Of a DNA stretch of 33,593 nt, positions 1-33,593 are shown piece after piece (position 1 is the first letter of the stretch; each line of letters opens with the position of its first letter). The position numbers were made by a program, and so were the translations under genes. The notes below the pieces were generated by a model. That model was not told where the DNA came from. It saw only the letters and a list, made by a program, of their open reading frames with translations, and ran no database searches. Source of the DNA: Bacteriophage P2; the sequence record NC_001895.1; one strand, given 5' to 3'.

Positions 1-19
1 GGCGAGGCGGGGAAAGCAC
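1..19 (+). repeat. cos: Left cohesive-end (cos) sequence; identical 19 nt recurs at 33575-33593
   Basis: Exact 19-nt identity GGCGAGGCGGGGAAAGCAC at both window termini; P2-type phages have 19-nt 5' cohesive ends. Confidence 0.8.
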
Positions 20-159
20 TGCGCGCTGACGGTGGTGCTGATTGTATTTTTTCAGCGTCTCAGCGCGTCGTGACGGCACTTAGTCTGCCCGTTGAGGCGT
101 TGTGTGTCTGCGGGGTGTTTTGTGCGGTGGTGAGCGTGTGAGGGGGGATGACGGGGTGT

Positions 160-181
160 AAAAAAGCCGCCCGCAGGCGGC
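160..181 (-). terminator. Rho-independent terminator downstream of Q (minus-strand transcript)
   Basis: GC stem GCCGCC(166-171)/GGCGGC(176-181), 4-nt loop, followed on the minus strand by a run of U (A-run 160-165 on plus); lies just after the Q stop. Confidence 0.6.
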
Positions 182-186
182 GATGT

Positions 187-1221
187 TCAGTCGTTGTCAG
201 TGTCCAGTGAGTAGTTTTTAAAGCGGATGACCTCCTGACCGAGCCAGCCGTTTATCTCGCGGATCCTGTCCTGTAACGGGATAAGCTCATTGCGGACAAA
301 GACCTTTGCCACTTTCTCAATATCACCCAGCGACCCGACGTTCTCCGGCTTGCCACCCATCAACTGAAAGGGGATGCGGTGCGCGTCCAGCAGGTCAGCG
401 GCGCTGGCTTTTTTGATATTAAAAAAATCGTCCTTCGTCGCCACTTCACTGAGGGGGATAATTTTAATGCCGTCGGCTTTCCCCTGTGGGGCATAGAGAA
501 ACAGGTTTTTAAAGTTGTTGCGGCCTTTCGACTTGACCATGTTTTCGCGAAGCATTTCGATATCGTTGCGATCCTGCACGGCATCGGTGACATACATGAT
601 GTATCCGGCATGTGCGCCATTTTCGTAATACTTGCGGCGGAACAACGTGGCCGACTCATTCAGCCAGGCAGAGTTAAGGGCGCTGAGATATTCCGGCAGG
701 CCGTACAGCTCCTGATTAATATCCGGCTCCAGCAGGTGAAACACGGAGCCGGGCGCGAAGGCTGTCGGCTCGTTGAAGGACGGCACCCACCAGTAAACAT
801 CCTCTTCCACGCCACGGCGGGTATATTTTGCCGGTGAGGTTTCCAGTCTGATGACCTTACCGGTGGTGCTGTAACGCTTTTCCAGAAACGCATTACCGAA
901 CACCAGAAAATCCAGCACAAAGCGGCTGAAATCCTGCTGGGAAAGCCATGGATGCGGGATAAATGTCGAGGCCAGAATATTGCGTTTGACGTAAATCGGC
1001 GAGCTGTGATGCACGGCAGCCCGCAGGCTTTTTGCCAGACCGGTAAAGCTGACCGGTGGCTCATACCATCTGCCGTTACTGATGCACTCGACGTAATCCA
1101 GAATGTCACGGCGGTCGAGTACCGGCACCGGCTCACCAAAGGTGAATGCCTCCATTTTCGGGCCGCTGGCGGTCATTGTTTTTGCCGCAGGTTGCGGTGT
1201 TTTCCCTTTTTTCTTGCTCAT
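187..1221 (-). CDS. Q: Portal protein (capsid portal vertex)
   Basis: 344-aa ORF, first gene inside left cos on minus strand, ATG at 1219-1221 overlapping P stop; length and position match P2 gpQ. Confidence 0.9.
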   Translation of the reverse strand: MSKKKGKTPQPAAKTMTASGPKMEAFTFGEPVPVLDRRDILDYVECISNGRWYEPPVSFTGLAKSLRAAVHHSSPIYVKRNILASTFIPHPWLSQQDFSRFVLDFLVFGNAFLEKRYSTTGKVIRLETSPAKYTRRGVEEDVYWWVPSFNEPTAFAPGSVFHLLEPDINQELYGLPEYLSALNSAWLNESATLFRRKYYENGAHAGYIMYVTDAVQDRNDIEMLRENMVKSKGRNNFKNLFLYAPQGKADGIKIIPLSEVATKDDFFNIKKASAADLLDAHRIPFQLMGGKPENVGSLGDIEKVAKVFVRNELIPLQDRIREINGWLGQEVIRFKNYSLDTDND

Positions 1222-2993
1222 CAGTAAAACTCCAGAATGGTGGATGTCAGCGGGGTGCTGATACCGGCGGTGAGTGGCTCATTTAACAGGGCGTGCATGG
1301 TCGCCCAGGCGAGGTCGGCGTGGCTGGCTTCCTCGCTGCGGCTGGCCTCATAGGTGGCGCTGCGTCCGCTGCTGGTCATGGTCTTGCGGATAGCCATAAA
1401 CGAGCTGGTGATGTCGGTGGCGCTGACGTCGTATTCCAGACAGCCACGGCGGATAACGTCTTTTGCCTTGAGCACCATTGCGGTTTTCATTTCCGGCGTG
1501 TAGCGGATATCACGCGCGGCGGGATAGAACGAGCGCACGAGCTGGAACACGCCGACACCGAGGCCGGTGGCATCAATACCGATGTATTCGACGTTGTATT
1601 TTTCGGTGAGTTTGCGGATGGATTCCGCCTGGGTGGCAAAGTCCATGCCTTTCCACTGGTGACGCTCAAGTATTCTGAATTTGCCACCGGCCACCACCGG
1701 CGGTGCCAGTACCACGCATCCGGCGCTGTCGCCACGGTGTGACGGGTCGTAACCAATCCATACCGGGCGGGAGCCGAACGGATTGGCGGCAAACGGCGCA
1801 TAGTCTTCCCATTCTTCCAGCGTGTCGACCATGCAGCGTTGCAGCTCCTCGAACGGGAACACCGATGCCTTGTCGTCAACAAATTCACACATGAACAGGT
1901 TTTTAAAATCGTCGGCGCTGTTTTCGCGTTTGAGCTGCTCAATGTCGAACAGCGTGCAGCCGCCTTTCAGGGCGTCCTCAATGGTGACAATCTGTCGCCA
2001 CTGGCCGTCCGCACAGAGAAGCCCACCGGCAAGGGCGTTATGACTGACGTCGATTTCCACGCGTTCGGCGGCGCTGGCGCGTCCCCGGTTAAACAGTTCA
2101 CCCGACCAGAACGGGTAGGCGTCGTGCGCCAGCGTGGACGGGGTGGAGAAATAGGTCGAGCGCAGGTGACTCTGTGAGGCCATACCTGATGCCACCTTAC
2201 GCAGTACCTGAAAATTCGGGATCCAGAAAATCTCATCGACGTACAGGTCGCCGTTATGACTCTGCGCGGTGTTGGAGTTGGTGCCGAGAAAAATCAGTTT
2301 TGCGCCGTTATTGCCCAGGACAATCGGGTCACCGGTCAGGTCAACGTCAACCAGACGGGCAAAGGCGATGATGTATTCGCGGAACACATACGCCTGTGTT
2401 TTACTGGCCGACAGAAAAATCTGGTTATGACCGGTTTTCAGGGCACGCAGCAGCGCCTCGCGGGAAAAATAAAACGTCGCGCCAATCTGGCGGGATTTCA
2501 GGATATCGCGGATGCGGTGCTCAAGCCCGGCACGATACCAGTGCAGCTGATAGTCGAAAGACTGCTCAAAGAAAATCTGCTCCAGCTTTTCGATGGCCTC
2601 GTCACTGAAAAAATTCTTTTTCGGTTTGCGCCGTCCGCCTTTGTTACGGTTAGCGACGTTCGGATTAAGGTCTGCCTCGTTGCCGGTCTGGCTGTAGCGG
2701 TTGACCCGTGCCAGTCGTTCAATCTGGCGTCCCAGCAGGTCAATTTCCTTGAAGTCACCGCCGGTTTTCTGTGGTTTGATGATGAGCTGGGTCAGCCGCG
2801 CTTCCAGACTCATTTCGACACGGCTGATGGGGGCAACGCTGTCCCAGCCGTCGCGCTGTTTCCAGCTCTGCACTGTCGGGCGTTTCATCTGCAACATGGC
2901 GGCAATCTGCGGCACGGAAAACCCCTGCCAGTACAGCAGCGCCGCCTGACGACGCGGGTCGTGTAAAAGAGTGGTGTCTGTGGTGATGGTCAT
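1221..2993 (-). CDS. P: Terminase large (ATPase) subunit
   Basis: ORF track begins at a TTG (3023); ATG at 2993 preceded by GAGGT RBS gives 590 aa (MTITTDTTLL...), the expected gpP length. Confidence 0.9.
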   Translation of the reverse strand: MTITTDTTLLHDPRRQAALLYWQGFSVPQIAAMLQMKRPTVQSWKQRDGWDSVAPISRVEMSLEARLTQLIIKPQKTGGDFKEIDLLGRQIERLARVNRYSQTGNEADLNPNVANRNKGGRRKPKKNFFSDEAIEKLEQIFFEQSFDYQLHWYRAGLEHRIRDILKSRQIGATFYFSREALLRALKTGHNQIFLSASKTQAYVFREYIIAFARLVDVDLTGDPIVLGNNGAKLIFLGTNSNTAQSHNGDLYVDEIFWIPNFQVLRKVASGMASQSHLRSTYFSTPSTLAHDAYPFWSGELFNRGRASAAERVEIDVSHNALAGGLLCADGQWRQIVTIEDALKGGCTLFDIEQLKRENSADDFKNLFMCEFVDDKASVFPFEELQRCMVDTLEEWEDYAPFAANPFGSRPVWIGYDPSHRGDSAGCVVLAPPVVAGGKFRILERHQWKGMDFATQAESIRKLTEKYNVEYIGIDATGLGVGVFQLVRSFYPAARDIRYTPEMKTAMVLKAKDVIRRGCLEYDVSATDITSSFMAIRKTMTSSGRSATYEASRSEEASHADLAWATMHALLNEPLTAGISTPLTSTILEFY

Positions 2994-3023
2994 GAATACC
3001 TCGCCGTGATGAATACACGGCAA

Positions 3024-3166
3024 GGCTACTGAGTCGCGCCCCGCGATTCGCTAAGGTGCTGTTGTGTCAGTGATAAGCCATCCGGGACTGATGGCGGAGG
3101 ATGCGCATCGTCGGGAAACTGATGCCGACATGTGACTCCTCTAATCACTATTCAGGACTCCTGACA
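3024..3166. promoter_or_regulatory. Divergent intergenic region between P and O; expected location of divergent late promoters
   Basis: 143-bp gap between divergently transcribed P and O operons; in P2-type phages Ogr-dependent late promoters lie here; no exact activator dyad could be placed by eye. Confidence 0.4.
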
Positions 3167-4021
3167 ATGGCAAAAAAAGTCTCAAAATTCTTTCGTATCG
3201 GCGTTGAGGGTGACACCTGTGACGGGCGTGTCATCAGTGCGCAGGATATTCAGGAAATGGCCGAAACCTTTGACCCGCGTGTCTATGGTTGCCGCATTAA
3301 CCTGGAACATCTGCGCGGCATCCTGCCTGACGGTATTTTTAAGCGTTATGGCGATGTGGCCGAACTGAAGGCCGAAAAGATTGACGATGATTCGGCGCTG
3401 AAAGGCAAATGGGCGCTGTTTGCGAAAATCACCCCGACCGATGACCTTATCGCGATGAACAAGGCCGCGCAGAAGGTCTACACCTCAATGGAAATTCAGC
3501 CGAACTTTGCCAACACCGGCAAATGTTATCTGGTGGGTCTGGCCGTCACCGATGACCCGGCAAGCCTCGGCACGGAATACCTGGAATTCTGCCGCACGGC
3601 AAAACACAACCCCCTGAACCGCTTCAAATTAAGCCCTGAAAACCTGATTTCAGTGGCAACGCCTGTTGAGCTGGAATTTGAAGACCTGCCTGAAACCGTG
3701 TTCACCGCCCTGACCGAAAAGGTGAAGTCCATTTTTGGCCGCAAACAGGCCAGCGATGATGCCCGTCTGAATGACGTGCATGAAGCGGTGACCGCTGTTG
3801 CTGAACATGTGCAGGAAAAACTGAGCGCCACTGAGCAGCGCCTCGCTGAGATGGAAACCGCCTTTTCTGCACTTAAGCAGGAGGTGACTGACAGGGCGGA
3901 TGAAACCAGCCAGGCATTCACCCGCCTGAAAAACAGTCTCGACCACACCGAAAGTCTGACCCAGCAGCGCCGCAGCAAAGCCACCGGCGGTGGCGGTGAC
4001 GCCCTGATGACGAACTGCTGA
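3167..4021 (+). CDS. O: Capsid scaffolding protein
   Basis: Internal ATG at 3167 (MAKKVSKFF...) gives 284 aa; coiled-coil-like C-terminal half; position between terminase and major capsid genes. Confidence 0.9.
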   Translation: MAKKVSKFFRIGVEGDTCDGRVISAQDIQEMAETFDPRVYGCRINLEHLRGILPDGIFKRYGDVAELKAEKIDDDSALKGKWALFAKITPTDDLIAMNKAAQKVYTSMEIQPNFANTGKCYLVGLAVTDDPASLGTEYLEFCRTAKHNPLNRFKLSPENLISVATPVELEFEDLPETVFTALTEKVKSIFGRKQASDDARLNDVHEAVTAVAEHVQEKLSATEQRLAEMETAFSALKQEVTDRADETSQAFTRLKNSLDHTESLTQQRRSKATGGGGDALMTNC

Positions 4022-4079
4022 CCGGCGTCAGTCAGTCCGGGAAAACCTTCACGATTAACCCTTAATTTCAGGAAAAACT

Positions 4080-5153
4080 ATGCGCCAGGAAACCCGCTTT
4101 AAATTTAATGCCTACCTGTCCCGTGTTGCCGAACTGAACGGCATCGACGCCGGTGATGTGTCGAAAAAATTCACCGTTGAACCGTCGGTCACCCAGACCC
4201 TGATGAACACCATGCAGGAGTCCTCTGACTTTCTGACCCGCATCAATATTGTGCCGGTCAGCGAAATGAAAGGGGAAAAAATTGGTATCGGTGTCACCGG
4301 CTCCATCGCCAGCACTACCGACACTGCCGGTGGTACCGAGCGTCAGCCGAAGGACTTCTCGAAGCTGGCGTCAAACAAGTACGAATGCGACCAGATTAAC
4401 TTCGATTTTTATATCCGCTACAAAACGCTGGACCTGTGGGCGCGTTATCAGGATTTCCAGCTCCGTATCCGTAACGCCATTATCAAACGCCAGTCCCTTG
4501 ATTTCATCATGGCCGGTTTTAACGGCGTGAAGCGTGCCGAAACCTCTGACCGCAGCAGCAATCCGATGTTGCAGGATGTGGCGGTCGGCTGGCTGCAGAA
4601 ATACCGCAATGAAGCACCGGCGCGCGTGATGAGCAAGGTCACTGACGAGGAAGGCCGCACCACCTCTGAGGTTATCCGCGTGGGTAAGGGCGGTGATTAT
4701 GCCAGCCTTGATGCACTGGTGATGGATGCGACCAACAACCTGATTGAACCGTGGTATCAGGAAGACCCTGACCTTGTGGTGATTGTGGGGCGTCAGCTAC
4801 TGGCGGACAAGTATTTCCCCATCGTCAACAAGGAGCAGGACAACAGCGAAATGCTGGCCGCTGACGTCATCATCAGCCAGAAACGCATCGGTAACCTACC
4901 AGCGGTACGCGTCCCGTACTTCCCGGCGGATGCGATGCTCATCACGAAGCTGGAAAACCTGTCCATCTACTACATGGATGACAGCCATCGCCGCGTGATT
5001 GAGGAAAACCCGAAACTCGACCGCGTGGAGAACTACGAGTCAATGAACATTGATTACGTGGTGGAAGACTACGCCGCCGGTTGTCTGGTGGAAAAAATCA
5101 AGGTCGGTGACTTCTCCACACCGGCTAAGGCGACCGCAGAGCCGGGAGCGTAA
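4080..5153 (+). CDS. N: Major capsid protein
   Basis: 357-aa ORF immediately after scaffold gene; length matches P2 gpN. Confidence 0.9.
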   Translation: MRQETRFKFNAYLSRVAELNGIDAGDVSKKFTVEPSVTQTLMNTMQESSDFLTRINIVPVSEMKGEKIGIGVTGSIASTTDTAGGTERQPKDFSKLASNKYECDQINFDFYIRYKTLDLWARYQDFQLRIRNAIIKRQSLDFIMAGFNGVKRAETSDRSSNPMLQDVAVGWLQKYRNEAPARVMSKVTDEEGRTTSEVIRVGKGGDYASLDALVMDATNNLIEPWYQEDPDLVVIVGRQLLADKYFPIVNKEQDNSEMLAADVIISQKRIGNLPAVRVPYFPADAMLITKLENLSIYYMDDSHRRVIEENPKLDRVENYESMNIDYVVEDYAAGCLVEKIKVGDFSTPAKATAEPGA

Positions 5154-5156
5154 CCG

Positions 5157-5900
5157 ATGACGAGTCCCGCACAGCGCCACATGATGCGGGTCTCGGCAGC
5201 GATGACCGCGCAGCGGGAAGCCGCCCCGCTGCGACATGCAACTGTCTATGAGCAGATGCTGGTTAAGCTCGCCGCAGACCAGCGCACACTGAAAGCGATT
5301 TACTCAAAAGAGCTGAAGGCCGCAAAAAAACGCGAACTGCTGCCGTTCTGGTTGCCGTGGGTGAACGGCGTGCTGGAGCTGGGCAAAGGTGCACAGGATG
5401 ACATTCTGATGACGGTCATGCTGTGGCGTCTGGATACCGGCGATATTGCCGGTGCGCTGGAGATTGCCCGTTATGCCCTGAAGTACGGTCTGACCATGCC
5501 GGGTAAACACCGCCGTACCCCGCCGTACATGTTCACCGAGGAGGTAGCGCTTGCGGCCATGCGCGCTCACGCTGCCGGTGAGTCTGTGGATACCCGCCTG
5601 CTGACGGAGACCCTTGAACTGACCGCCACGGCTGACATGCCTGATGAAGTGCGCGCAAAGCTGCACAAAATCACCGGTCTGTTTCTGCGTGACGGTGGTG
5701 ATGCCGCCGGTGCGCTGGCGCACCTGCAACGTGCGACACAGCTCGACTGTCAGGCAGGCGTCAAAAAAGAGATTGAACGACTGGAGCGGGAGCTGAAACC
5801 GAAGCCGGAGCCGCAGCCCAAAGCGGCCACCCGCGCCCCGCGTAAGACCCGGAGCGTGACACCGGCAAAACGTGGACGCCCGAAAAAGAAAGCCAGTTAA
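5157..5900 (+). CDS. M: Terminase small (endonuclease/DNA-recognition) subunit
   Basis: 247-aa ORF after capsid gene; Lys/Pro/Arg-rich basic C-terminal tail (KPKPEPQPKAATRAPRKTR...GRPKKKAS). Confidence 0.85.
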   Translation: MTSPAQRHMMRVSAAMTAQREAAPLRHATVYEQMLVKLAADQRTLKAIYSKELKAAKKRELLPFWLPWVNGVLELGKGAQDDILMTVMLWRLDTGDIAGALEIARYALKYGLTMPGKHRRTPPYMFTEEVALAAMRAHAAGESVDTRLLTETLELTATADMPDEVRAKLHKITGLFLRDGGDAAGALAHLQRATQLDCQAGVKKEIERLERELKPKPEPQPKAATRAPRKTRSVTPAKRGRPKKKAS

Positions 5901-5999
5901 CAACCGAATGCGCCCCGCGCCAGGGCGGCACGCCGGTCAGTGACGGTGAATCACCTGACACTGCACCGGCGTCCACCGCCCGACTTTTCAGAGGTAGTC

Positions 6000-6712: not shown

Positions 6713-6715
6713 CGC

Positions 6716-7494: not shown

Positions 7495-7508
7495 ACGGAG
7501 TAAATACC

Positions 7509-9367: not shown

Positions 9368-9396
9368 TTTTATCCAGGCAGAGGCTGATGCGCAAT

Positions 9397-9438: not shown

Positions 9439-10224
9439 TTATGAGTGATTTTTATTTGATGCTTTGTATTCTAAAACCTTCTTATTGGCGTAAAAGAATT
9501 TTGTATATGACAGGAATATAACCAGACCTGAAGTGAAATAGACGAGGGATAGTATTAATAATGCTTTTTTGTGACTGTTATTATCTTTAATCTCCTGGCT
9601 TAACCATTCGGAGTCCTCCTCGTTTAGCTGTAAGAGCTTATTGCAGGCGATCTCAGGAAGTGTGTCTTTTATAAATACGTTTTGCAGTCTCTTGCAATCG
9701 GCAAGGCTATAAGTTTTATTAAATTCAACTGCTTTATTTTTGAAGGATAAAAGAACTTTGTCACTATAAACATAGTACATCATGTTTTTATATGGTATGC
9801 CTGTGGCATCCCTTACTATAACGGATTGTTCGTTGTGTATGTAACATGCGAGGAGAATGTAAAAAATACTGGCCAGAATTACAATTATTGTTTTAATTAT
9901 GTGTGGTGGTTTTGTTATGTCACCCCAGATACGAGTAAGGAAAAAATACGATGTTTTTAGTTTTCCATCAATCAGTCCCTGCTGTATCATTCTCACATTT
10001 TCAATGCCTGATACATTGATTCCGTTAATTATTTTAAATAGTTGAATGTCGCGCCACTCGCGGTCAAGTCTTTTTAATTTTTTGTCTGAATATCCAAAAT
10101 TGAAATAATGTGCAATAAGCCTCATAAGGTTACTTTTACCAAAGCTAAAAAATGCTAATACTGCAAAGCTACAAAGGAAAAAAACGATTAGCCCCCACAC
10201 ATTAGTCACATTATAGCTGACCAT
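9439..10224 (-). CDS. Low-GC accessory (moron) gene: 261-aa membrane protein with about three transmembrane helices, function unknown (P2 orf30 position)
   Basis: ATG at 10222-10224; AT-rich codon usage unlike flanking genes; hydrophobic segments VWGLIVFFLCSFAVLAFFSF, IIKTIIVILASIFYILLACYI, ALLILSLVYFTSGLVIFLSY; opposite strand to the late operons. Confidence 0.75.
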   Translation of the reverse strand: MVSYNVTNVWGLIVFFLCSFAVLAFFSFGKSNLMRLIAHYFNFGYSDKKLKRLDREWRDIQLFKIINGINVSGIENVRMIQQGLIDGKLKTSYFFLTRIWGDITKPPHIIKTIIVILASIFYILLACYIHNEQSVIVRDATGIPYKNMMYYVYSDKVLLSFKNKAVEFNKTYSLADCKRLQNVFIKDTLPEIACNKLLQLNEEDSEWLSQEIKDNNSHKKALLILSLVYFTSGLVIFLSYTKFFYANKKVLEYKASNKNHS

Positions 10225-15674: not shown

Positions 15675-17261
15675 TTATTTTTTTAAAGCCTTTCCGACGT
15701 TTAAGGATTTTGCCAAGCCATAAAATATTTGATATTTCATTCCTGTTTTTATTTTTGGTGAGATATTTGCGTAACTTCTTTCTCTAAAACACCAACGTAT
15801 AAACCTATTATTATCTTCGGTTGTTTCTATATAGCATATTACATTGAGACCAAAAAGAAACTGAAGGAAGTCATTTGCAGTTGTCATGAATTTTGGTTTT
15901 GTTGTGGAAATGGAACTAATATGAGTTTCAAGTTGTTTATATGCTAAGAGGTATTCAGCGTAATCAAAAGTATCTTTTCCAGAGAGGAATTCAAAGAACT
16001 TTAAAAAAATCTCATAATGTTCACTTCCATAATAAAATGATAAATGATCTTTTATTTCTCCAAGTAAATAGTTAGAGTAATCTCTTTGCATGCTAGGACT
16101 TTCAAAGTCATCTAGACTAAATTGATTTTTCCCATCATCACCGCTGGCGTGTGATTTGATAATTTCGAGCATCCGTAATATATCTCTTGGGCGATAATAT
16201 GACCAGCGAAGGAAATTAATAAATGATGTGGGGTGGTTATAATTATCATGGACGTTGGGTGAATCCCAAGGGAAATAATGGTCCCATGCCTGTCCCTTTT
16301 TAAGGGCCATGTCTTGCTGAGTCCTAAGCAGATGATCTAATACCTCAAATAATTGAGAGCTACGGTGGTTAACATATTCTGTCCGCCAGTCCAAGAATAC
16401 TGAATTATCTCTGATTTTTGCGTTTTGATTTTGTAATCCTATGGATTCAAATATATCTGGCCTGATCAAGAGAACGGCCTTCATTCTCCCTTTTCCTCCC
16501 TTTATACTTGGGAAGAAATCGTTGTTAATCTCCCAGACTGCGTGAGCTAATCCTTTTATACATTCTAGATAATCATCGTATGGAATTGAGGAAGGGCGGA
16601 TATCAATACCATCGATAAATAAAATATGATTTTGAGATAAACGTATTTGGCTAAAGGCCTCTTCAAATTTTTTTTGTATATAAAATAAATTTATCTGAAA
16701 TCTGCTCTCAGAAAAAGATAAAGACTCTCTTTCTTCACCTTTTAAGGTTGCATGCTTATGAAGTAGTTCGGCTGCAACTTTTGACTCTTGAACAAAACTG
16801 AGGGCTTGAATTATTTCTGGTGAAAATGCCTTAAGATAATACTCATCTATTGCATCATTAAGTGATGAGAATTTTGAATAATTTAGTAACTTTGAAATTT
16901 TCCCTTCTTTATCTAATACTTGTTTTGATATTAATAAATATAGAATAACTTTCCATATGCCAGAGAAGTCAGACAAATTTAAATGCTTTTCAGATTTAAG
17001 AGTGATAAATTTTTGATATTCTGTCTCTCTTATATATTTAGTTGTAGCTAGCGTATTGTTAATATTGTTATTTGAGAGATAGATAGAGTATGCGGTTTTA
17101 CCAGTACCTTTCTCTCCTACAAGAAACGATATATTTGGTTCACATAATCTAGATAGGTGATTATCACGTATGAACACTTTGTTAAGTAATTCTTTATTCT
17201 CCCTTCTCTTATAATTTTCAGCATCAGCATAGCCAAGAGTTAGATCTTTGATTGGTATCAT
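15675..17261 (-). CDS. fun: Low-GC accessory gene: 528-aa P-loop NTPase (Walker A GEKGTGKT; candidate Walker B ILFIDGIDIR), candidate phage-exclusion protein at the Z/fun position
   Basis: ATG at 17259-17261 with GAGGT RBS; strongly AT-rich; minus strand between plus-strand G and FI; flanked by about 400-bp AT-rich non-coding regions; gene symbol assigned from position in the P2 map, not from sequence comparison. Confidence 0.75.
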   Translation of the reverse strand: MIPIKDLTLGYADAENYKRRENKELLNKVFIRDNHLSRLCEPNISFLVGEKGTGKTAYSIYLSNNNINNTLATTKYIRETEYQKFITLKSEKHLNLSDFSGIWKVILYLLISKQVLDKEGKISKLLNYSKFSSLNDAIDEYYLKAFSPEIIQALSFVQESKVAAELLHKHATLKGEERESLSFSESRFQINLFYIQKKFEEAFSQIRLSQNHILFIDGIDIRPSSIPYDDYLECIKGLAHAVWEINNDFFPSIKGGKGRMKAVLLIRPDIFESIGLQNQNAKIRDNSVFLDWRTEYVNHRSSQLFEVLDHLLRTQQDMALKKGQAWDHYFPWDSPNVHDNYNHPTSFINFLRWSYYRPRDILRMLEIIKSHASGDDGKNQFSLDDFESPSMQRDYSNYLLGEIKDHLSFYYGSEHYEIFLKFFEFLSGKDTFDYAEYLLAYKQLETHISSISTTKPKFMTTANDFLQFLFGLNVICYIETTEDNNRFIRWCFRERSYANISPKIKTGMKYQIFYGLAKSLNVGKALKK

Positions 17262-23954: not shown

Positions 23955-24035
23955 TGTTTTTGTTTTATCTGTTTGTTTTGTAAGGATAAATTAACTAAAA
24001 TGGCACCATCAACAAAACCGGAAGAGGTGCTCGCG

Positions 24036-24254
24036 ATGTTTCATTGTCCTTTATGCCAGCATGCCGCACATGCGCGTACAAGTCGCTATATCACTGACAC
24101 GACAAAAGAGCGTTATCATCAGTGCCAGAACGTGAATTGCAGCGCCACGTTCATCACTTATGAGTCGGTACAGCGATACATCGTGAAGCCGGGAGAAGTC
24201 CACGCCGTAAGGCCGCACCCGTTGCCATCAGGGCAGCAAATTATGTGGATGTAA
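24036..24254 (+). CDS. ogr: Late-gene transcription activator, Cys4 zinc finger
   Basis: ATG 24036 gives 72 aa (MFHCPLCQHAAH...CQNVNC...); C-x2-C ... C-x4-C motif; position between D and attP. Confidence 0.85.
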   Translation: MFHCPLCQHAAHARTSRYITDTTKERYHQCQNVNCSATFITYESVQRYIVKPGEVHAVRPHPLPSGQQIMWM

Positions 24255-24264
24255 TTACAAACAG

Positions 24265-24291
24265 AAAGCCCCTCAGTCGAGGGGCTTTTTT
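24265..24291 (+). terminator. Rho-independent terminator after ogr
   Basis: Stem AGCCCCTC (24267-24274) / GAGGGGCT (24279-24286), 4-nt loop AGTC, followed by T-run 24286-24291. Confidence 0.75.
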
Positions 24292-24293
24292 GT

Positions 24294-24490
24294 CGATGTG
24301 GTCAATGTGTGGACGTGACCAGAAATAAATCCTTTTATTTCAATTTATTGTACGTAAAAAATAAGCCCGTGTAAGGGAGATTTAGGGTGTCACCAGTAGG
24401 GGCTTTCAACGGTACAATGCGGGTTTGAGCGGCATAAATTACCACTGAAAGCCCTTAAACGTTACTCTACTGTGGACACTGTGTGGACAC
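24294..24490. other. attP: Phage attachment site attP: core around 24356-24382 flanked by arm-type integrase binding repeats
   Basis: Core AAAAAATAAGCCCGTGTAAGGGAGATT at 24356-24382; direct repeats TGTGGACA at 24471 and 24483 and related TGTGGACG/TGTGGTCA at 24308/24297; right-arm repeats overlap the 3' end of int. Confidence 0.7.
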
Positions 24491-25475
24491 TCTCGGCCTC
24501 AGTACCACCTCTTAGCGGATTAAGAGAAATGGCGTCCTGAAGGTACTCTGGCGCAAAATGAGCGTAAACCATAGTTTGCTCAATCCGCGTGTGACCTAGT
24601 ATCCGTTGTAGCGTGATAATACTTCCTCCATTAATCATGAAATGAGTGGCAAAGCTGTGCCTTAGTGCATGTGTGGCTTGCCCCATTGGCAAATCCGGTT
24701 TTATTGCTTTCATTGTTCGTCTGAAGCGAGGGTAATCAGCATCAGGGAATAAAAAACCTCGTTTGTTATCCGCGATCATTTTGGCAACAGCCTCTGAGAT
24801 CGGGACGGTGCGTGGTTTGTTTGTTTTCGTTTTAACAAACGTGACGCGGTTATGGATGATATTTTCTGCTTTCAAACGAGCTGCTTCTCCCCAACGTGCT
24901 CCTGTACTCAGGCAAAGAATCGCAATCTTTTTATTGTCGCCGTCAAGTGCTGCAAGCAGTAAGGCAATTTCTTCCTGTGTTAGATAGCCTGTTTCTGGTT
25001 TTTCCTCCTTAAGCCTTTTTGTCCCTCTGATAGGGTGCTCACCAAAGAATAACTCCGCTTCAATCAGGGCTGTAAACATGCCGCTAATACATGTTAAATC
25101 ACGATTGATACTCGAAGGTTTAATACCCTGACTTCTTCGGGTGGCGCAGTACTGGCTGATAAGCGATTTCGTAATTTGAAATGCGCATGGGTCATTCGTT
25201 ATTTTTGTGAAGATTTCAATTTTTCCAAGATTAGATTTCCCATGCTCTTCGTGTTTACCCTTTAAATCCCACCAGATCTGTGTCAGCTCCGACAGACGTC
25301 GCTTGTCTGTTGGTTTTGATAGCCATTCTTTATTGTGGTGGTTGTACAACGTGTATTTCTCGAAAGCGACAGCTTCGCTTTTCTTATCAAACTTCCTACG
25401 GATGCGTTTTCCATTACGTCCAGTAGGGCGGATGTCCACTTCATATCGACCATCATCGAGTTTTTTGATTGCCAT
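24462..25475 (-). CDS. int: Tyrosine integrase
   Basis: 337-aa ORF, ATG at 25473-25475 with GGAGGG RBS; C-terminal catalytic signature ...HALRHSFATHF...LGHTRIEQTMVYAHF. Confidence 0.9.
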   Translation of the reverse strand: MAIKKLDDGRYEVDIRPTGRNGKRIRRKFDKKSEAVAFEKYTLYNHHNKEWLSKPTDKRRLSELTQIWWDLKGKHEEHGKSNLGKIEIFTKITNDPCAFQITKSLISQYCATRRSQGIKPSSINRDLTCISGMFTALIEAELFFGEHPIRGTKRLKEEKPETGYLTQEEIALLLAALDGDNKKIAILCLSTGARWGEAARLKAENIIHNRVTFVKTKTNKPRTVPISEAVAKMIADNKRGFLFPDADYPRFRRTMKAIKPDLPMGQATHALRHSFATHFMINGGSIITLQRILGHTRIEQTMVYAHFAPEYLQDAISLNPLRGGTEAESVHTVSTVE

Positions 25476-26280: not shown

Positions 26281-26290
26281 GGAGAACCGT

Positions 26291-26958: not shown

Positions 26959-27021
26959 GTAATTAACCAGAGTTTTTAACGCACTTAATTGTGCGGGGCT
27001 TCTTTTTGCCTGGAGAAAGTT

Positions 27022-27772: not shown

Positions 27773-28044
27773 GTATTCGTATTGAAATTGGCGAACGTTA
27801 TGTCGTTACCAGTGACAGCTTTCAGTTTATTCTCCACGAGAAAAAGAGAGCGGAAAGCGGTAAAAACGCCGGTCAGGAATGGCTGGCGGTGGTTGGTTAT
27901 TACCCGAAATTAAGCCAGCTCGTTTCAGGCCTGATGCATCACGATATTCTGACCGGAAGCGCAAAGTCTTTTGCTGATTTAAACGTGCAGGTTGAGCAAC
28001 TCAGCAAGCGTTGTTCAGAGGCTTTTGGCTCATATGGCCGTTAA
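27769..28044 (+). CDS. Small early protein of unknown function (orf83 position)
   Basis: 91-aa ORF overlapping the preceding stop; translationally coupled to A. Confidence 0.6.
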   Translation: MSIRIEIGERYVVTSDSFQFILHEKKRAESGKNAGQEWLAVVGYYPKLSQLVSGLMHHDILTGSAKSFADLNVQVEQLSKRCSEAFGSYGR

Positions 28045-30319
28045 AGCCTCCGGGCGTTTTGTCCCTCCGTCAGCATTTGCCGCAGGCACCGGTAAGATGT
28101 TTACCGGTGCTTATGCATGGAACGCGCCACGCGAGGCCGTCGGGCGCGAAAGACCCCTTACACGTGACGAGATGCGTCAGATGCAAGGTGTTTTATCCAC
28201 GATTAACCGCCTGCCTTACTTTTTGCGCTCGCTGTTTACTTCACGCTATGACTACATCCGGCGCAATAAAAGCCCGGTGCACGGGTTTTATTTCCTCACA
28301 TCCACTTTTCAGCGTCGTTTATGGCCGCGCATTGAGCGTGTGAATCAGCGCCATGAAATGAACACCGACGCGTCGTTGCTGTTTCTGGCAGAGCGTGACC
28401 ACTATGCGCGCCTGCCGGGAATGAATGACAAGGAGCTGAAAAAGTTTGCCGCCCGTATCTCATCGCAGCTTTTCATGATGTATGAGGAACTCAGCGATGC
28501 CTGGGTGGATGCACATGGCGAAAAAGAATCGCTGTTTACGGATGAGGCGCAGGCTCACCTCTATGGTCATGTTGCTGGCGCTGCACGTGCTTTCAATATT
28601 TCCCCGCTTTACTGGAAAAAATACCGTAAAGGACAGATGACCACGAGGCAGGCATATTCTGCCATTGCCCGTCTGTTTAACGATGAGTGGTGGACTCATC
28701 AGCTCAAAGGCCAGCGTATGCGCTGGCATGAGACGTTACTGATTGCTGTCGGGGAGGTGAATAAAGACCGTTCTCCTTATGCCAGTAAACATGCCATTCG
28801 TGATGTGCGTGCACGCCGCCAAGCAAATCTGGAATTTCTTAAATCGTGTGACCTTGAAAACAGGGAAACCGGCGAGCGCATCGACCTTATCAGTAAGGTG
28901 ATGGGCAGTATTTCTAATCCTGAAATTCGCCGGATGGAGCTGATGAACACCATTGCCGGTATTGAGCGTTACGCCGCCGCAGAGGGTGATGTGGGGATGT
29001 TTATCACGCTTACCGCGCCTTCAAAGTATCACCCGACACGTCAGGTCGGAAAAGGCGAAAGTAAAACCGTCCAGCTAAATCACGGCTGGAACGATGAGGC
29101 ATTTAATCCAAAGGATGCGCAGCGTTATCTCTGCCATATCTGGAGCCTGATGCGCACGGCATTCAAAGATAATGATTTACAGGTCTACGGTTTGCGTGTC
29201 GTCGAGCCACACCACGACGGAACGCCGCACTGGCATATGATGCTTTTTTGTAATCCACGCCAGCGTAACCAGATTATCGAAATCATGCGTCGCTATGCGC
29301 TCAAAGAGGATGGCGACGAAAGAGGAGCCGCGCGAAACCGTTTTCAGGCAAAACACCTTAACCAGGGCGGTGCTGCGGGGTATATCGCGAAATACATCTC
29401 AAAAAACATCGATGGCTATGCACTGGATGGTCAGCTCGATAACGATACCGGCAGACCGCTGAAAGACACTGCTGCGGCTGTTACCGCATGGGCGTCAACG
29501 TGGCGCATCCCACAATTTAAAACGGTTGGTCTGCCGACAATGGGGGCTTACCGTGAACTACGCAAATTGCCTCGCGGCGTCAGCATTGCTGATGAGTTTG
29601 ACGAGCGCGTCGAGGCTGCACGCGCCGCCGCAGACAGTGGTGATTTTGCGTTGTATATCAGCGCGCAGGGTGGGGCAAATGTCCCGCGCGATTGTCAGAC
29701 TGTCAGGGTCGCCCGTAGTCCGTCGGATGAGGTTAACGAGTACGAGGAAGAAGTCGAGAGAGTGGTCGGCATTTACGCGCCGCATCTCGGCGCGCGTCAT
29801 ATTCATATCACCAGAACGACGGACTGGCGCATTGTGCCGAAAGTTCCGGTCGTTGAGCCTCTGACTTTAAAAAGCGGCATCGCCGCGCCTCGGAGTCCTG
29901 TCAATAACTGTGGAAAGCTCACCGGTGGTGATACTTCGTTACCGGCTCCCACACCTTCTGAGCACGCCGCAGCAGTGCTTAATCTGGTTGATGACGGTGT
30001 TATTGAATGGAATGAACCGGAGGTCGTGAGGGCGCTCAGGGGCGCATTAAAATACGACATGAGAACGCCAAACCGTCAGCAAAGAAACGGAAGCCCGTTA
30101 AAACCGCATGAAATTGCACCATCTGCCAGACTGACCAGGTCTGAACGATTGCAGATCACCCGTATCCGCGTTGACCTTGCTCAGAACGGTATCAGGCCTC
30201 AGCGATGGGAACTTGAGGCGCTGGCGCGTGGAGCAACCGTAAATTATGACGGGAAAAAATTCACGTATCCGGTCGCTGATGAGTGGCCGGGATTCTCAAC
30301 AGTAATGGAGTGGACATGA
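28034..30319 (+). CDS. A: Rolling-circle replication initiator (HUH endonuclease family)
   Basis: ATG 28034 (MAVKAS...) gives 761 aa; HUH-like metal-binding motif PHWHMMLF and tyrosine pair in AAGYIAKYISKNIDGY. Confidence 0.85.
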   Translation: MAVKASGRFVPPSAFAAGTGKMFTGAYAWNAPREAVGRERPLTRDEMRQMQGVLSTINRLPYFLRSLFTSRYDYIRRNKSPVHGFYFLTSTFQRRLWPRIERVNQRHEMNTDASLLFLAERDHYARLPGMNDKELKKFAARISSQLFMMYEELSDAWVDAHGEKESLFTDEAQAHLYGHVAGAARAFNISPLYWKKYRKGQMTTRQAYSAIARLFNDEWWTHQLKGQRMRWHETLLIAVGEVNKDRSPYASKHAIRDVRARRQANLEFLKSCDLENRETGERIDLISKVMGSISNPEIRRMELMNTIAGIERYAAAEGDVGMFITLTAPSKYHPTRQVGKGESKTVQLNHGWNDEAFNPKDAQRYLCHIWSLMRTAFKDNDLQVYGLRVVEPHHDGTPHWHMMLFCNPRQRNQIIEIMRRYALKEDGDERGAARNRFQAKHLNQGGAAGYIAKYISKNIDGYALDGQLDNDTGRPLKDTAAAVTAWASTWRIPQFKTVGLPTMGAYRELRKLPRGVSIADEFDERVEAARAAADSGDFALYISAQGGANVPRDCQTVRVARSPSDEVNEYEEEVERVVGIYAPHLGARHIHITRTTDWRIVPKVPVVEPLTLKSGIAAPRSPVNNCGKLTGGDTSLPAPTPSEHAAAVLNLVDDGVIEWNEPEVVRALRGALKYDMRTPNRQQRNGSPLKPHEIAPSARLTRSERLQITRIRVDLAQNGIRPQRWELEALARGATVNYDGKKFTYPVADEWPGFSTVMEWT

Positions 30320-30645
30320 TGGCAAAAATTCACGAGGTAAAGCTGCACGCAAAATATTTCGACCTTGTACTGGAAGGAAAGAAACGCGCAGAGTTTCGGA
30401 AAAAAGATCGTAATTATGAGCGCGGGGACACGTTGATTTTGCATGAATGGGTGCAGGGTGTGTTTACGGGGCGAAAGGTTGAAGCCCGGATAACAGATGT
30501 TACTGACCTGTCAGACTGGCTGGAAGATTATGTCTTGCTGCACAGAATACTAGGTGAGATACTGCCGCTGACTGTCAAGCTGGCAGTATCCTCCACATTT
30601 TTTATAAATCTAAGGCGAAGAACGGTGGCAATATATTTGCTTTAA
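30316..30645 (+). CDS. ASCH/DUF3850-like small protein (orf91 position)
   Basis: ATGATG at 30316-30321 overlapping the A stop; pattern KIHEVKLHAKYFDLVLEGKKRAEFRKKDRNYERGDTLILHEW resembles ASCH/DUF3850 (PUA-like) domain proteins. Confidence 0.65.
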   Translation: MMAKIHEVKLHAKYFDLVLEGKKRAEFRKKDRNYERGDTLILHEWVQGVFTGRKVEARITDVTDLSDWLEDYVLLHRILGEILPLTVKLAVSSTFFINLRRRTVAIYLL

Positions 30646-30683
30646 ATTGTAAATAAGCAAATTATTCTAAGCCACAAATGATA

Positions 30684-31445
30684 TCAATTGAGTATCGATT
30701 TTCGTTCGAATATAACCATAACGCCAAGCGTCAAATGTAAGTCATCTATATGTGATTCGTATTCATATTGGTCAGCATCAGGAGATAGTAAATGCTCTGC
30801 TGCTGTAAAAACATCAATTGTAACAGATATATCGTCTGGAATTTCTTCATTTAATTCGGATATGTATTTTTTATATTTGTTTTTTAATTTCCTTATCATG
30901 TCTTCCTTATGGTGGATTGTAGTGCAGTAATTTTTTTTAGTTGAATCATTGTATGAATGGAATGAACAGTTTAATGCTAGGCCAAGACTTGAATTTCCTG
31001 TAGGGCCTGTGTGTTTAAAGTATTCAAGATTTCTTCTTATGTCAGAAAATAAAAGACTTTTACAGGGGGCATTTCCTTTAACTTCTATTGCACATATTGG
31101 AATGTCGAAAAATGGTCTGCTGTCCAATATGGCAATATCAATTCTGCCTGATCTTGTTGTGTTTGTGTTTTTTCTGACAGTTTTTTTTGAGAATATTTTT
31201 TGGGGGTCAGACCGTTTCGATAAAGGAACTGTTGCATTAATGAATTTATTTGTATGGTACTCAAATATAACTTTGTAATCACCATGGCGAAAAGATTTTA
31301 TTTCTAACAACGATAGACCTATAGATACGGTAGCTACATATTCAGTGTTTATTTTTGCACCAGACCTGAAATCCATTAAATAAGTTGCGTCGGCTGACTT
31401 TTTCATTCCATCTTTTACAGCTTTCACAATATCCATGTTATTCAT
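30684..31445 (-). CDS. tin: Low-GC accessory gene: 253-aa protein at the tin position (T-even phage inhibition), with a possible PD-(D/E)xK-like motif
   Basis: ATG at 31443-31445 with AGGTG RBS; AT-rich; minus strand downstream of old; motif IDIAILD...x13...EVK in residues about 101-123; gene symbol assigned from position in the P2 map. Confidence 0.75.
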   Translation of the reverse strand: MNNMDIVKAVKDGMKKSADATYLMDFRSGAKINTEYVATVSIGLSLLEIKSFRHGDYKVIFEYHTNKFINATVPLSKRSDPQKIFSKKTVRKNTNTTRSGRIDIAILDSRPFFDIPICAIEVKGNAPCKSLLFSDIRRNLEYFKHTGPTGNSSLGLALNCSFHSYNDSTKKNYCTTIHHKEDMIRKLKNKYKKYISELNEEIPDDISVTIDVFTAAEHLLSPDADQYEYESHIDDLHLTLGVMVIFERKSILN

Positions 31446-31619
31446 ATCAACACCTTTTATATTCCAGAATTATAAATCTTAATGATTGATTTGTTTGTGT
31501 GTTTAGGTTACTAGATTGACGTACTTATAGCACATTCTGATTTTGAAATCACCATCCTTGGGTAAAGCACAGCCTATCACTATTGGTTTAGTACTGTGCT
31601 GTAATAGTATCAGATTAAG

Positions 31620-33380
31620 TTAAATCCATTTTATGAAATCTTCCATTTCATCATATTTTTTTATTACTGCTCTAACATCTTTGCTTTCATCACATAAACA
31701 ATCTAAAAGACTATCCCATTCAGTTTGTTTTTTACCAAATCCATAAACAGCCTCTATATCACCGGATTTCCATATATAGATTCCGTTATCTTTCAATTTT
31801 TGATGTATTTCATGTATATGCTTTTGTGTTTTTTCATGGTTACATATTTTGATGAAGTCTTTGCTTGAAATGCTTTTGAATGACTCAAAAGTAGTAACTT
31901 TTGTATTTAAACTAAGCTCTCCTGAGTTGATTGATTCAATCAAAGCAGTCAATAGATTATCACATTCAGTACTAAGTAAGTCTTTATGCTCTGTTAATAG
32001 AATATTTGATAAGAAATCACAATCAGCTAGAATCCTTGTTTTTATGCCGATGGCATTGATGATTTGTGACATCTTAAATAAACTACCCTTACCGTCAACG
32101 GCAACAATGCAGATTTTACTCGGGTTGAGTTCATGTCCGTTAATTTTTTTATAAAGTGCATATAGAACGTTTGTCTCTGTTTTCCCTTCAACAAGCAAAA
32201 CTTCTTCAGAAAATAAAAGGTATGATGAATTAGAAAGCGTGAATGCTGAGTGCAATTGCGGTGATGAAGATTTATATAATTCTTCGATTTTTTCAGATAT
32301 AGTCTTCCTTGCTATGGTTCCATTAGAATCCTTACAAACCTGAATCGCATTTGCTGCATGCTTTGCAGAAAGCATACTGGCTGAGTGAGTTGATATTATA
32401 ACCTGATACCCTGATTCACTTAATGTGACAAGTGATTCTCTGACAGAATTAATGGCTGAAGGGTGTAAATATAACTCAGGTTCATCAATGAAAATCAAAG
32501 TGTTTGATTTTTTTGATTCGCTGTTTTCTTTTTTTATTTCGGCCAGGTATTGAATTAATGCCATTTGAATGGAACGTTGTGTTCCGTGACCAAATCGGCT
32601 GATATCTCTCATTACCGGTTCATCTTCCCGAGACTCAAAAACTTTCAGAGTGCCGGATTTAAATATCTCATCTAATGTCGGTGTGGGAAAGTGTAACTTT
32701 ACACTTACGTCAGGAAAAAATTGGTTTACTTTTTTATTTACACCTGAGTCTATTTTATTAAGGCTTTCTAATCTGTTCTCACCGTTGTGAGAAAGATATT
32801 TACCTATTTCTGATATGTTTTTTGAAAATTTTTCTTCGTGTTCTTGTTTTATTTCAGAAACAATTGCGGAAAGTATCTTTCCTATTGTGGTCGTGTTTTT
32901 GCATTTTGTTGAGTCTTCGACAGCGTCAGACATTGCAGGGATATGAATTGGTTCCGGAAATATATTGGAGATTGCACCATCTATGCCGCCAGGGTTTTTC
33001 TTCCACGTGGTACCGTCATATACATCCAGACTTTTTTTGGCTTTTCCTGTTTCCTTATTAAATTCCTGTCTTCTTGCAAAGGTAAGAGTCCCGTCAATTA
33101 TAAACGGAGCTATTTTTTGTTGATTCTCTTCTGTTAACAAAGACAGAGTATCATCTGTTATACCTTGAATAACGCCTTCAACGGATACGGGGTGTGTAGG
33201 ATCGTACACATCTGATTCTGAAATCAAAGAGCCATCTAACAGCCACTTAATTGCTAAGATAATATTTGATTTTCCTGCGTTATTATAACCAACTAAAGCA
33301 GTGAAGGGGCGCAAAATAGCCGATGTTGACTTACAAGAACGAAAGTTGCTAATTGAAACTGAAGCAAGACGTACAGTCAT
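31620..33380 (-). CDS. old: OLD-family nuclease: N-terminal ABC-type ATPase fused to C-terminal TOPRIM domain (anti-phage / overcoming lysogenisation defect)
   Basis: 586 aa; Walker A GYNNAGKSN near N-terminus; Walker B LIFIDEPELYLHP; TOPRIM-like LLVEGKTETNVL and DxD in ILADCDFLS; AT-rich; last gene before right cos. Confidence 0.85.
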   Translation of the reverse strand: MTVRLASVSISNFRSCKSTSAILRPFTALVGYNNAGKSNIILAIKWLLDGSLISESDVYDPTHPVSVEGVIQGITDDTLSLLTEENQQKIAPFIIDGTLTFARRQEFNKETGKAKKSLDVYDGTTWKKNPGGIDGAISNIFPEPIHIPAMSDAVEDSTKCKNTTTIGKILSAIVSEIKQEHEEKFSKNISEIGKYLSHNGENRLESLNKIDSGVNKKVNQFFPDVSVKLHFPTPTLDEIFKSGTLKVFESREDEPVMRDISRFGHGTQRSIQMALIQYLAEIKKENSESKKSNTLIFIDEPELYLHPSAINSVRESLVTLSESGYQVIISTHSASMLSAKHAANAIQVCKDSNGTIARKTISEKIEELYKSSSPQLHSAFTLSNSSYLLFSEEVLLVEGKTETNVLYALYKKINGHELNPSKICIVAVDGKGSLFKMSQIINAIGIKTRILADCDFLSNILLTEHKDLLSTECDNLLTALIESINSGELSLNTKVTTFESFKSISSKDFIKICNHEKTQKHIHEIHQKLKDNGIYIWKSGDIEAVYGFGKKQTEWDSLLDCLCDESKDVRAVIKKYDEMEDFIKWI

Positions 33381-33574
33381 TATTTTTCCTTAAATGTGCT
33401 ATTTGTATGCAATGAGTTCATACGAAACGCTTTTTTACATTTTATAGTCGTTGCATTCAAGGGTGCATGAGATTGCATTAAGGGAAACTGTGATATGGCT
33501 TGGCTTTTGACTGGAAATACTGATGGCTCATTAGTTTTATTAAGGTGCATTAAAACCGCCCCGTGAAGCGGGCG

Positions 33575-33593
33575 GGCGAGGCGGGGAAAGCAC
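33575..33593 (+). repeat. cos: Right cohesive-end (cos) sequence, identical to 1-19
   Basis: Exact 19-nt identity with the window start; preceded by GC-rich palindrome CCGCCC...GGGCGG at about 33557-33577. Confidence 0.8.

Follow-up and report, generated by a model that had tools for sequence, protein, structure and literature searches.

The window (the whole stretch of DNA that was analysed, 33,593 bp) represents, with a probability of about 97%, the reference genome of the E. coli bacteriophage P2 (Peduovirus P2; NC_001895/AF063097), written out from one cos end to the other in the form of the mature linear virion chromosome. Exact-sequence look-up returned P2 entries for six encoded proteins: Old (VOLD_BPP2), Int (VINT_BPP2), Cox (VCOX_BPP2), the portal protein Q (PORTL_BPP2/AAD03268.1), Tin (AAD03308.1) and the C protein. 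NC_001895.1 has been published as 33593 bp with 50.2% GC (Table 1 of PMC5285337), and the GC content computed for the window was 50.17%. From the six exact proteins, together with length and GC content, we infer that the window would match NC_001895 base for base. In the searched phage collection, which lacks NC_001895, the closest relatives reached 96 to 97% identity over 85 to 87%. Comparison with the P2 reference in length, GC content, cos 19-mer, attP core, gene order and the six proteins detected no differences, and no evidence contradicting the P2 cos-to-cos reading was found in this analysis. The observation is correct but ordinary, being already known and fully documented.

Gene content of the window

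The initial annotation had described a full P2-type genome, and the description was borne out: gene content was that of a complete P2-type set in the same order as in P2 (Table 1), with agreement among Pfam families, Tin and Old profiles and the genes of colinear prophages. Comparison with P2-family references, which had been proposed as a check, likewise gave a cos position, flanks and gene order in agreement with a P2-type unit. A capsid family was also detected in the window (Pfam), and old was additionally recognized by the PADLOC Old profile (1.3e-214). The limits listed for gene P are those of a mechanical open reading frame (ORF), and its real start is probably at an internal ATG. Prophage genes colinear with M are annotated as “terminase endonuclease subunit”, and by Pfam assignment the cognate terminase (gpM small, gpP large) and the portal gpQ are encoded beside cos. 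Scans of the window against Rfam and for tRNAs returned no matches.

Table 1. Positions of the features discussed in the text (coordinates of the window; strand “.” where no strand is assigned).
Feature	Position	Strand	Remarks
cos, left cohesive end	1..19	+	5' single-stranded tail of virion DNA, top strand
Short conserved flank TGCGCGC, right of cos	20..26	.	7 nt; from P4 comparison and conservation profile
Predicted intrinsic terminator of leftward P-Q late operon	166..181	-	GCCGCC-TGCG-GGCGGC then TTTTTT, 5 nt past the Q stop
Q, portal protein	187..1221	-	Pfam Phage_portal; exact PORTL_BPP2/AAD03268.1
P, terminase large (ATPase/nuclease) subunit	1221..3023	-	Pfam Terminase_6N, Terminase_6C, Terminase_5 (gpP-like)
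M, terminase small subunit	5157..5900	+	Pfam Phage_term_smal
ogr, late-gene activator	23973..24254 (ORF limits)	+	Pfam Ogr_Delta, residues 24-70
attP core, AAAAAATAAGCCCGTGTAAGGGAGATT	24356..24382	.	27 bp; once in window, between ogr and int
int, tyrosine integrase	24462..25475	-	Pfam Int_N and Phage_integrase; exact VINT_BPP2
A, rolling-circle replication initiator	27992..30319 (ORF limits)	+	Pfam Phage_GPA
tin, phage-exclusion gene, cos-adjacent hotspot	30684..31445	-	PADLOC Tin 6.9e-98; exact AAD03308.1
old, ATPase-TOPRIM nuclease, phage-exclusion gene	31620..33380	-	Pfam AAA_15 and OLD-like_TOPRIM; exact VOLD_BPP2
Long conserved cos flank, TGCATTAAAACCGCCCCGTGAAGCGGGCG	33546..33574	.	29 nt; long arm of 55-bp P2/P4 cos core
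Imperfect GC-rich palindrome CCGCCC-(8 nt)-GGGCGG	33556..33575	.	Overlaps top-strand nick; TTTT next on minus strand
Second written copy of the 19 nt	33575..33593	+	Stands for complementary 5' tail, bottom strand, right end

Cohesive ends at the termini

Comparison of the ends gave exactly GGCGAGGCGGGGAAAGCAC at bases 1 to 19 and again at bases 33575 to 33593, as the initial annotation had claimed of the two termini. When the window ends were compared, prefix equalled suffix only at k = 19, and the 19-mer occurred twice in the window (both strands, up to 3 mismatches) and in none of 100 dinucleotide shuffles. Such a match of prefix and suffix is classically expected of a circular contig, and physical ends are invisible in sequence, both of which would suit an assembly artefact in the form of an overlap left by an opened circular assembly. 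Nineteen is, however, not a usual k-mer overlap of assemblers. An artefact is also highly improbable on other grounds: chemical sequencing of the P2 cohesive end gave exactly this 19-mer, the repeat starts at the base where curated entries for 186, PSP3, Wphi and fiAA91-ss start, with explicit cos annotation, and it lies at the centre of a block conserved with satellite P4. In PMC3931495 (citing Padmanabhan, Wu and Calendar 1974) the P2 cohesive end is given as 5'-GGCGAGGCGGGGAAAGCAC-3', 19 nt long and 5'-protruding, and the 19-mer of the window is identical to this chemically sequenced end of 1974 as quoted there. The two 19-mers represent the two complementary 5' single-stranded tails and no duplex repeat, the physical overhang being taken from the literature. 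Because the 19-mer is written twice to stand for both tails, the unique genome amounts to 33,574 bp. The repetition is a writing convention, and the right copy does not exist as a distinct sequence once the genome is circular or integrated.

The written repeat is all that speaks for a true double-stranded direct terminal repeat of 19 bp (T7-like, and very short) or for headful packaging. Either would be most surprising given the single-stranded 5' tails described in PMC3931495, the staggered cuts of top and bottom strands described in the 186 record, the single copy of the 19-mer in circular and integrated forms, and a terminase and cos core common to P4, a unit-length genome packaged by the same site. 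The linear virion chromosome with its cohesive end written at both termini, as originally proposed, agrees with the way in which related sequences are recorded: a single, uninterrupted cos is found in prophages and in permuted phage records. In the records of 186, Wphi and P4 cos is written once, and in that of fiAA91-ss twice, with cosR annotated. Base 1 of the window is also the exact first base of at least 14 related phage records, and others read through one cos. For many of these cos-starting records the choice of ends probably followed P2 by analogy, and they therefore provide no independent physical evidence for the ends. In the prophages of DA33137 (L001) and RS571 (L002) and in all fetched IMG/VR loci cos was single-copy, matching the P2/186/P4 type of cos, which occurs once when the genome ends are joined in the circular or integrated form.

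Conserved cos core and GC-rich palindromes

A 55-bp core comprising positions 33546-33574, the 19-mer and positions 20-26 recurs in satellite P4 with the 19-mer identical and 3 mismatches in total; the long flank is nearly identical there, differing only in the hairpin loop (33564-65). A cos region of 55 bp is described in PMC3931495 with reference to Ziermann and Calendar 1990. For 84 distinct cos loci, median identity was 90% in the long flank and 28% further left, and the conservation profile had the same extent as the block common to P2 and P4. Homology with other P2-like phages starts exactly at 33546, and the neighbouring island differs. The long flank is presumed to be the terminase recognition side. 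On the other side, the bottom strand of 20-26 reads GCGCGCA^G and the top-strand nick context GCGGGCG^G, a similarity by which the short flank may resemble the nick context as a half-site. A hairpin-like site on the plus strand (23-38) lies outside the conserved block.

Both GC-rich palindromes that had been reported next to cos are present, although the right one lies at 33556-33575 and not at about 33557-33577. Their treatment as equivalent cos elements survived for the right palindrome, which falls within the cos core, and failed for the left one, which belongs with the Q operon as its putative terminator. In the right dyad, 6 G-C pairs enclose a loop of 8 nt, and the dyad ends on the base with which the right cos copy starts. 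Its 3' arm was invariant across relatives (84 distinct loci), pair 33557-33574 was kept in 42/84 and pair 33559-33572 in 50/84, and no compensatory changes were found in the 5' arm among these loci. Against shuffled GC-rich sequence, neither the dyad nor the 166-181 hairpin had a significantly better fold (z about −1.6). Because mismatches were uncompensated and fold energy was unremarkable, 33556-33575 was rejected as a conserved hairpin; the dyad is part of the 55-bp core and is conserved as sequence. Together with TTTT on the minus strand, the dyad could conceivably form a tandem with 166-181 in circular or prophage DNA, as a back-up intrinsic terminator, though we consider this unlikely. 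If it were so, the old-tin hotspot, which shares the leftward direction of transcription, would be shielded from late P-Q transcription running past the operon end, and the packaging signal would also serve as a transcriptional insulator at the hotspot border.

The left palindrome is exact (GCCGCC-CGCA-GGCGGC on the plus strand; 6 G-C pairs, 4-nt loop) and presents on the coding strand the GC-rich stem-loop and T-run, just past a stop codon, of an intrinsic terminator. Of the 87 loci in which gpQ adjoins cos, 77 carried it, with a constant stem and a variable loop (TGCG, GCA, TCCG, TCA, GTAT and others), whereas 0 of 31 loci lacking gpQ did, and the positional equivalent in phage 186 is annotated as “terminator tW” (164-187). 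Judged by sequence and position, 166-181 is predicted to be the terminator of the portal/terminase operon and no part of cos. It was rejected as a cos element because it travels with gene Q and is missing from P4-like loci.

attP and the integrated form

The intact internal attP claimed for the window was confirmed, with the 27-bp core AAAAAATAAGCCCGTGTAAGGGAGATT found whole; this core is identical in sequence to the 3' terminator of the host small RNA gene cyaR. The RS571 prophage has one copy of the core at either end, as attL and attR; the core is exactly where its colinearity with the window is lost (breakpoints 24355/24382), and cos is internal. The contiguous ogr-attP-int stretch was absent from all 5,426 Escherichia coli genomes searched. 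The old/portal junction across cos was present over its full 619 nt in 17 genomes and in part in 2,153 of the 5,426. Annotated prophages with a single cos between the two gene groups confirm that the tin-old island adjoins the portal and terminase genes in the integrated form, as had been predicted.

A short direct repeat at both ends also resembles attL/attR cores, as would be seen if the window were an excised or predicted prophage with the 19-mer as its att core duplication. We regard this as extremely unlikely, since real prophages are bounded by another sequence, the 27-bp core at 24356-24382 of the window, and have a single internal 19-mer, located between old and Q. The window itself contains no host DNA and no split att with a duplicated core at its borders, and its ogr-attP-int region is uninterrupted. 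With cos present once and the 27-bp core at both borders of prophages, the window is therefore a cos-linearised permutation and not a prophage, which upholds the initial annotation on this point. In the DA33137 prophage the match starts 64 nt left of the core and the right flank is pflB. Alignment identified the additional 64-nt stretch as a decayed, P-arm-like relic lying on the host side, and the right end without a core points to a rearranged or hybrid locus. As a contradiction of the 27-bp core this locus was dismissed, given the host-side relic and the clean case provided by RS571.

Comparison with related systems

Phages 186, Wphi, PSP3, fiAA91-ss and other Peduoviridae share the cos position, its 19-nt length and the adjoining portal gene with P2, and across the family the flanks (−29 to +26) and the terminator past the portal gene are conserved as in P2. 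The 186 record annotates its own positions 1-19 as “cos; cohesive end”; ends of the 186 type (GGCGTGGCGGGGAAAGCAT) depart from the P2 sequence at 2 of 19 positions, as well as at the base preceding the nick. To the left of cos these phages carry other cargo than P2; of 94 IMG/VR loci with Q, only 1 had Old. In P4, everything beyond the 55 bp differs from P2: P4 has neither a portal gene nor a terminator at +166, and cos is flanked by psu/delta and gop/int. P4 has the same 55 bp and would therefore be packaged by the same terminase, and its packaging by the P2 terminase has been reported (PMC9122126).

The conserved flank of P2 cos, at only about 29 nt, also sets it apart from lambda cos. As in P2, staggered nicks at lambda cos (cosN/cosB) yield 5' cohesive ends, although these are 12 nt long in lambda versus 19 in P2 and have no sequence similarity. 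An asymmetric recognition flank and partial two-fold symmetry of the nick contexts would be further features common to both, the symmetry in P2 following from the half-site reading of 20-26. Lambda terminase uses concatemers, whereas P2 terminase packages by preference from monomeric circles.

Proposed life cycle of the ends

Particle DNA would consist of about 33,555 bp of duplex and two complementary 19-nt 5' single-stranded tails, and writing both tails on one strand would give 33,593 positions with an apparent 19-nt terminal repeat. After injection, the tails would anneal and be ligated into a circle in which old/tin lie beside Q/P across a single cos. In lysogeny, Int would recombine the 27-bp attP core with a host site, giving the prophage permutation int...A-tin-old-cos-Q-P...D-ogr. 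For packaging, the terminase (gpM and gpP) would recognise the cos core of ∼55 bp, with the dyad 33556-33575 presumably part of the sequence recognised and nicked, and introduce two nicks 19 bp apart before threading the DNA through the gpQ portal.

Implications

The finding matters only as bookkeeping and opens no new questions. The P2 record over-counts the genome by 19 bp, and software that screens for circularity or terminal repeats has to read the 19-mer as a cohesive end and not as a duplication. The genes at the two ends of the record, old/tin and Q/P, are neighbours in vivo, and the cos-adjacent position of old/tin has already been recognised as a defence hotspot common to P4 satellites (Rousset et al. 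2022).

Identity of the genome and its termini

Judging by exact proteins, length and GC content, the window is bacteriophage P2 itself: all six encoded proteins submitted to exact-sequence look-up were on record (see table), and the window measures 33,593 bp at 50.17% GC, NC_001895.1 being tabulated at 33,593 bp and 50.2% GC (PMC5285337). The closest phage matches were relatives such as Wphi, L-413C and R18C, just 96-97% identical, and the tin-old island occurred in no record of the phage collection searched, in both cases because that collection does not include NC_001895. Family scans identified portal, large terminase (gpP-type N-terminal domain), GPO scaffold, P2-type capsid and small terminase, together with Ogr, integrase, the GPA replication protein and an OLD-type ATPase-TOPRIM nuclease; PADLOC recognized both Tin and Old, and the other morphogenetic and lysis genes were colinear with annotated P2-type prophages at 96-98% identity, bearing out the P2-type gene content proposed in the initial annotation.

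Bases 1-19 and the last 19 bases were both GGCGAGGCGGGGAAAGCAC, 19 being the only length at which prefix equals suffix. These two terminal copies were the only ones in the window (both strands, ≤3 mismatches), and none arose in 100 dinucleotide-preserving shuffles, confirming the identical termini first noted. Because the end is written at both termini, unique sequence amounts to 33,574 bp. P2-type phages carry 19-nt 5′ tails and a 55-bp cos (PMC3931495): the cohesive end of P2-related phages is 5′-GGCGAGGCGGGGAAAGCAC-3′, 5′-protruding (PMC3931495, citing Padmanabhan, Wu and Calendar 1974), and the cos region needed for packaging spans 55 bp (PMC3931495, citing Ziermann and Calendar 1990). In the curated record of phage 186, bases 1-19 carry the annotation [quoted passage not shown]. 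Searching with the circular junction showed that no fewer than 14 records of relatives (including Wphi, 186, PSP3, fiAA91-ss, R18C, HQ103, EtG and SEN1) start at the base equal to window position 1, and those linearized at other points read uninterrupted through one cos copy. Unlike the window, the curated 186, Wphi and P4 records write the 19-mer once, whereas fiAA91-ss, like the window, has it at both ends, annotated as cosL and cosR. Given these two conventions, the terminal “repeat” is thus notation for two complementary single-stranded tails, the 19-mer being written twice rather than duplicated as duplex sequence. Published end sequence, 186 annotation and relatives' start base all support the claimed linear genome with a cohesive end at both termini.

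Prophage form and attachment site

A test junction for the circle (last 300 nt, one cos, next 300 nt; 619 nt) was contiguous at full length in 17 complete E. coli genomes, all 17 annotating it as “ATP-dependent nuclease” beside “phage portal protein”; partial matches occurred in 2,153 of 5,426 genomes, and the ogr-attP-int stretch (24150-24650) was contiguous at ≥80% coverage in 0 of 5,426. In RS571 (prophage region L002), yegR and yegQ flank a P2-type prophage whose order is int...A-tin-old-cos-Q-P...D-ogr, with the 27-bp core AAAAAATAAGCCCGTGTAAGGGAGATT (window 24356-24382) at each border, colinearity with the window ending at 24355 and 24382, and a single, internal 19-mer. Every IMG/VR contig retrieved by the cos core likewise held the 19-mer once. 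The intact internal attP of the initial annotation, whose core is present at both borders in RS571, therefore stands, as do its claims that the window is not an attL/attR-bounded prophage and that tin-old adjoins the portal and terminase genes once the ends are joined. The terminal identity could otherwise be an assembly-overlap artefact, a pair of attL/attR ends, or a short duplex terminal repeat or the product of headful packaging. All three conflict with the published P2 end sequence, with the single internal 19-mer in prophages and with the att core, which differs in sequence and lies internally, and even jointly we regard them as very improbable. Elements of the cohesive-end reading seen here were a single cos per unit, joined ends, the permuted order of the prophage, how far the conserved core extends, and terminase and portal genes close by. 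P2 terminase (gpM and gpP) reportedly prefers monomeric closed circles as the substrate for cutting cos, in work attributed to Pruss and Calendar and to Bowden and Modrich in 1985. Everything in this cos-to-cos account is already known.

In reverse complement, the attP core equals the 3′ terminator of cyaR, a host sRNA gene (L002 36339-36427; Rfam CyaR_RyeE, 100.7 bits, at 36342-36427 on the minus strand); P2 therefore integrates where cyaR ends and provides a new 3′ end in its place, which the CyaR literature has probably recorded already. Next to yegR, the host side of attL carries the P2 ogr-side arm in decayed form (L002 2660-2716; 3590-3648 in L001, the DA33137 prophage region), with ATCGATGTGGTCAATG identical to P2 and the remainder diverged. 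This arm, which looks like a relic of an older P2-type attR, is why many E. coli matches to the attP region begin 64 nt to the left of the core. In DA33137 (L001, NZ_CP029579.1 4492000-4533000), the P2-type prophage is flanked by yegR beside int and by pflB/focA beside ogr; at the latter end no core copy was found and P2 homology stops at window 24342, which suggests either that the chromosome was rearranged between two P2-like prophages or that the locus is a hybrid carrying another att arm. A strong hairpin and T-run (24268-24291, AAAGCCCCTCAGTCGAGGGGCTTTTTT) directly follows ogr and abuts the attP arm, and TGTGGAC repeats on either side of the core (24309-24315 and 24474-24490) are candidate Int arm-type sites.

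Anatomy of cos and its palindromes

P4 uses the P2 terminase (PMC9122126), and the two genomes align without gaps over 33546-33574 (29 nt), the 19-mer and 20-26 (7 nt), a 55-bp block with three mismatches beyond which P4 is unrelated to P2. The same limits recur in other P2-like phages, whose homology begins at 33546, and in 84 distinct cos loci, where median identity to P2 was 90% at -29..-1 and 100% at +20..+26, against 28% further left and ~50% further right. Top-strand (AGCGGGC(G/A)^G) and bottom-strand ((A/G)GCGCGCA^(G/A)) nick contexts resemble each other. This resemblance suggests that the two are partly two-fold symmetric, as in lambda cosN, a point that may already stand in older literature. 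Across the 84 IMG/VR loci, the base preceding the top-strand nick (G/A) tends to change together with those at cos position 5 (A/T), cos position 19 (C/T) and +27 (t/c), dividing the loci into P2-type and 186-type cos with a few mixed variants; this could reflect terminase specificity or simply lineage.

The palindromes beside cos reported at both ends were both present, the left one exactly as placed, but their roles differ. On the minus strand, the left palindrome forms a hairpin of six G-C pairs followed by TTTTTT, 5 nt past the Q stop. Its positional equivalent in 186 is annotated as terminator tW, and a perfect hairpin and T-run, of constant stem and varying loop, occupied this place in 77 of 87 loci with gpQ beside cos and 0 of 31 without. 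It also lies outside the P2/P4 block. This combination argues for a predicted terminator of the leftward P-Q late operon; a role as a cos element was rejected on the block limits and the 0 of 31.

Situated inside the conserved block, the right palindrome overlaps the top-strand nick, its final base being the first of the right cos copy. Its nick-side 3′ arm is invariant across relatives and its 5′ arm varies without compensation (pair 33557-33574 retained in 42/84 loci, 33559-33572 in 50/84), P2/P4 differences are confined to the loop, and folding energy was not unusual for its composition (z = -1.6). A conserved hairpin was not supported, given the uncompensated changes and ordinary energy; the element is best read as a putative protein-recognized sequence that happens to form a full palindrome in P2. 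In the circle or prophage, leftward transcription from Q meets both sites as tandem terminator-like hairpins with T-runs (minus strand) flanking cos and preceding the old promoter region, old being transcribed in the same direction.

Features of the window and exact protein matches
Feature	Coordinates	Strand	Sequence or record
Left palindrome	166-181		GCCGCC-CGCA-GGCGGC, exact position
Right palindrome	33556-33575		CCGCCC, 8 nt, GGGCGG
Low-GC island 1	9439-10224	-	
Low-GC island 2	15675-17261	-	
Low-GC island 3	30684-33380	-	tin/old
Old			VOLD_BPP2, exact match
Int			VINT_BPP2, exact match
Cox			VCOX_BPP2, exact match
Q			PORTL_BPP2 / AAD03268.1, exact match
Tin			AAD03308.1, exact match

Variable islands and the cos-adjacent slot

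Three low-GC islands (0.31-0.37 versus ~0.55 in flanks) each hold minus-strand ORFs inserted between conserved modules. PADLOC gave no match for islands 1 and 2, which we take to be orf30 and fun(Z) of the P2 map. Relatives carry other cargo in or near variable slots (L001 28763-29989; L002 6412-7419 and 27822-29123): the slot of the 15.6-17.4 kb island, between the tail-fibre assembly gene and FI, holds a Shedu immune nuclease in DA33137 and a hypothetical protein in RS571, where a PAPS-reductase-family gene is also inserted immediately before gene A.

Rousset et al. 2022 (PMC9122126) have already reported this cos-adjacent slot as a defence hotspot in P2 (old, tin) and in P4. Among 120 IMG/VR cos loci, gpQ lay right of cos in 94, 67 of which additionally had gpA ≤6 kb to the left; ~19 were P4-type satellites, in which psu/delta and P4 int lie on opposite sides, and Old was found in just one of the loci. 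The junction in E. coli genomes and these gene neighbors therefore establish that the adjacency of the right-end island and the portal gene is real and general, while its cargo varies.
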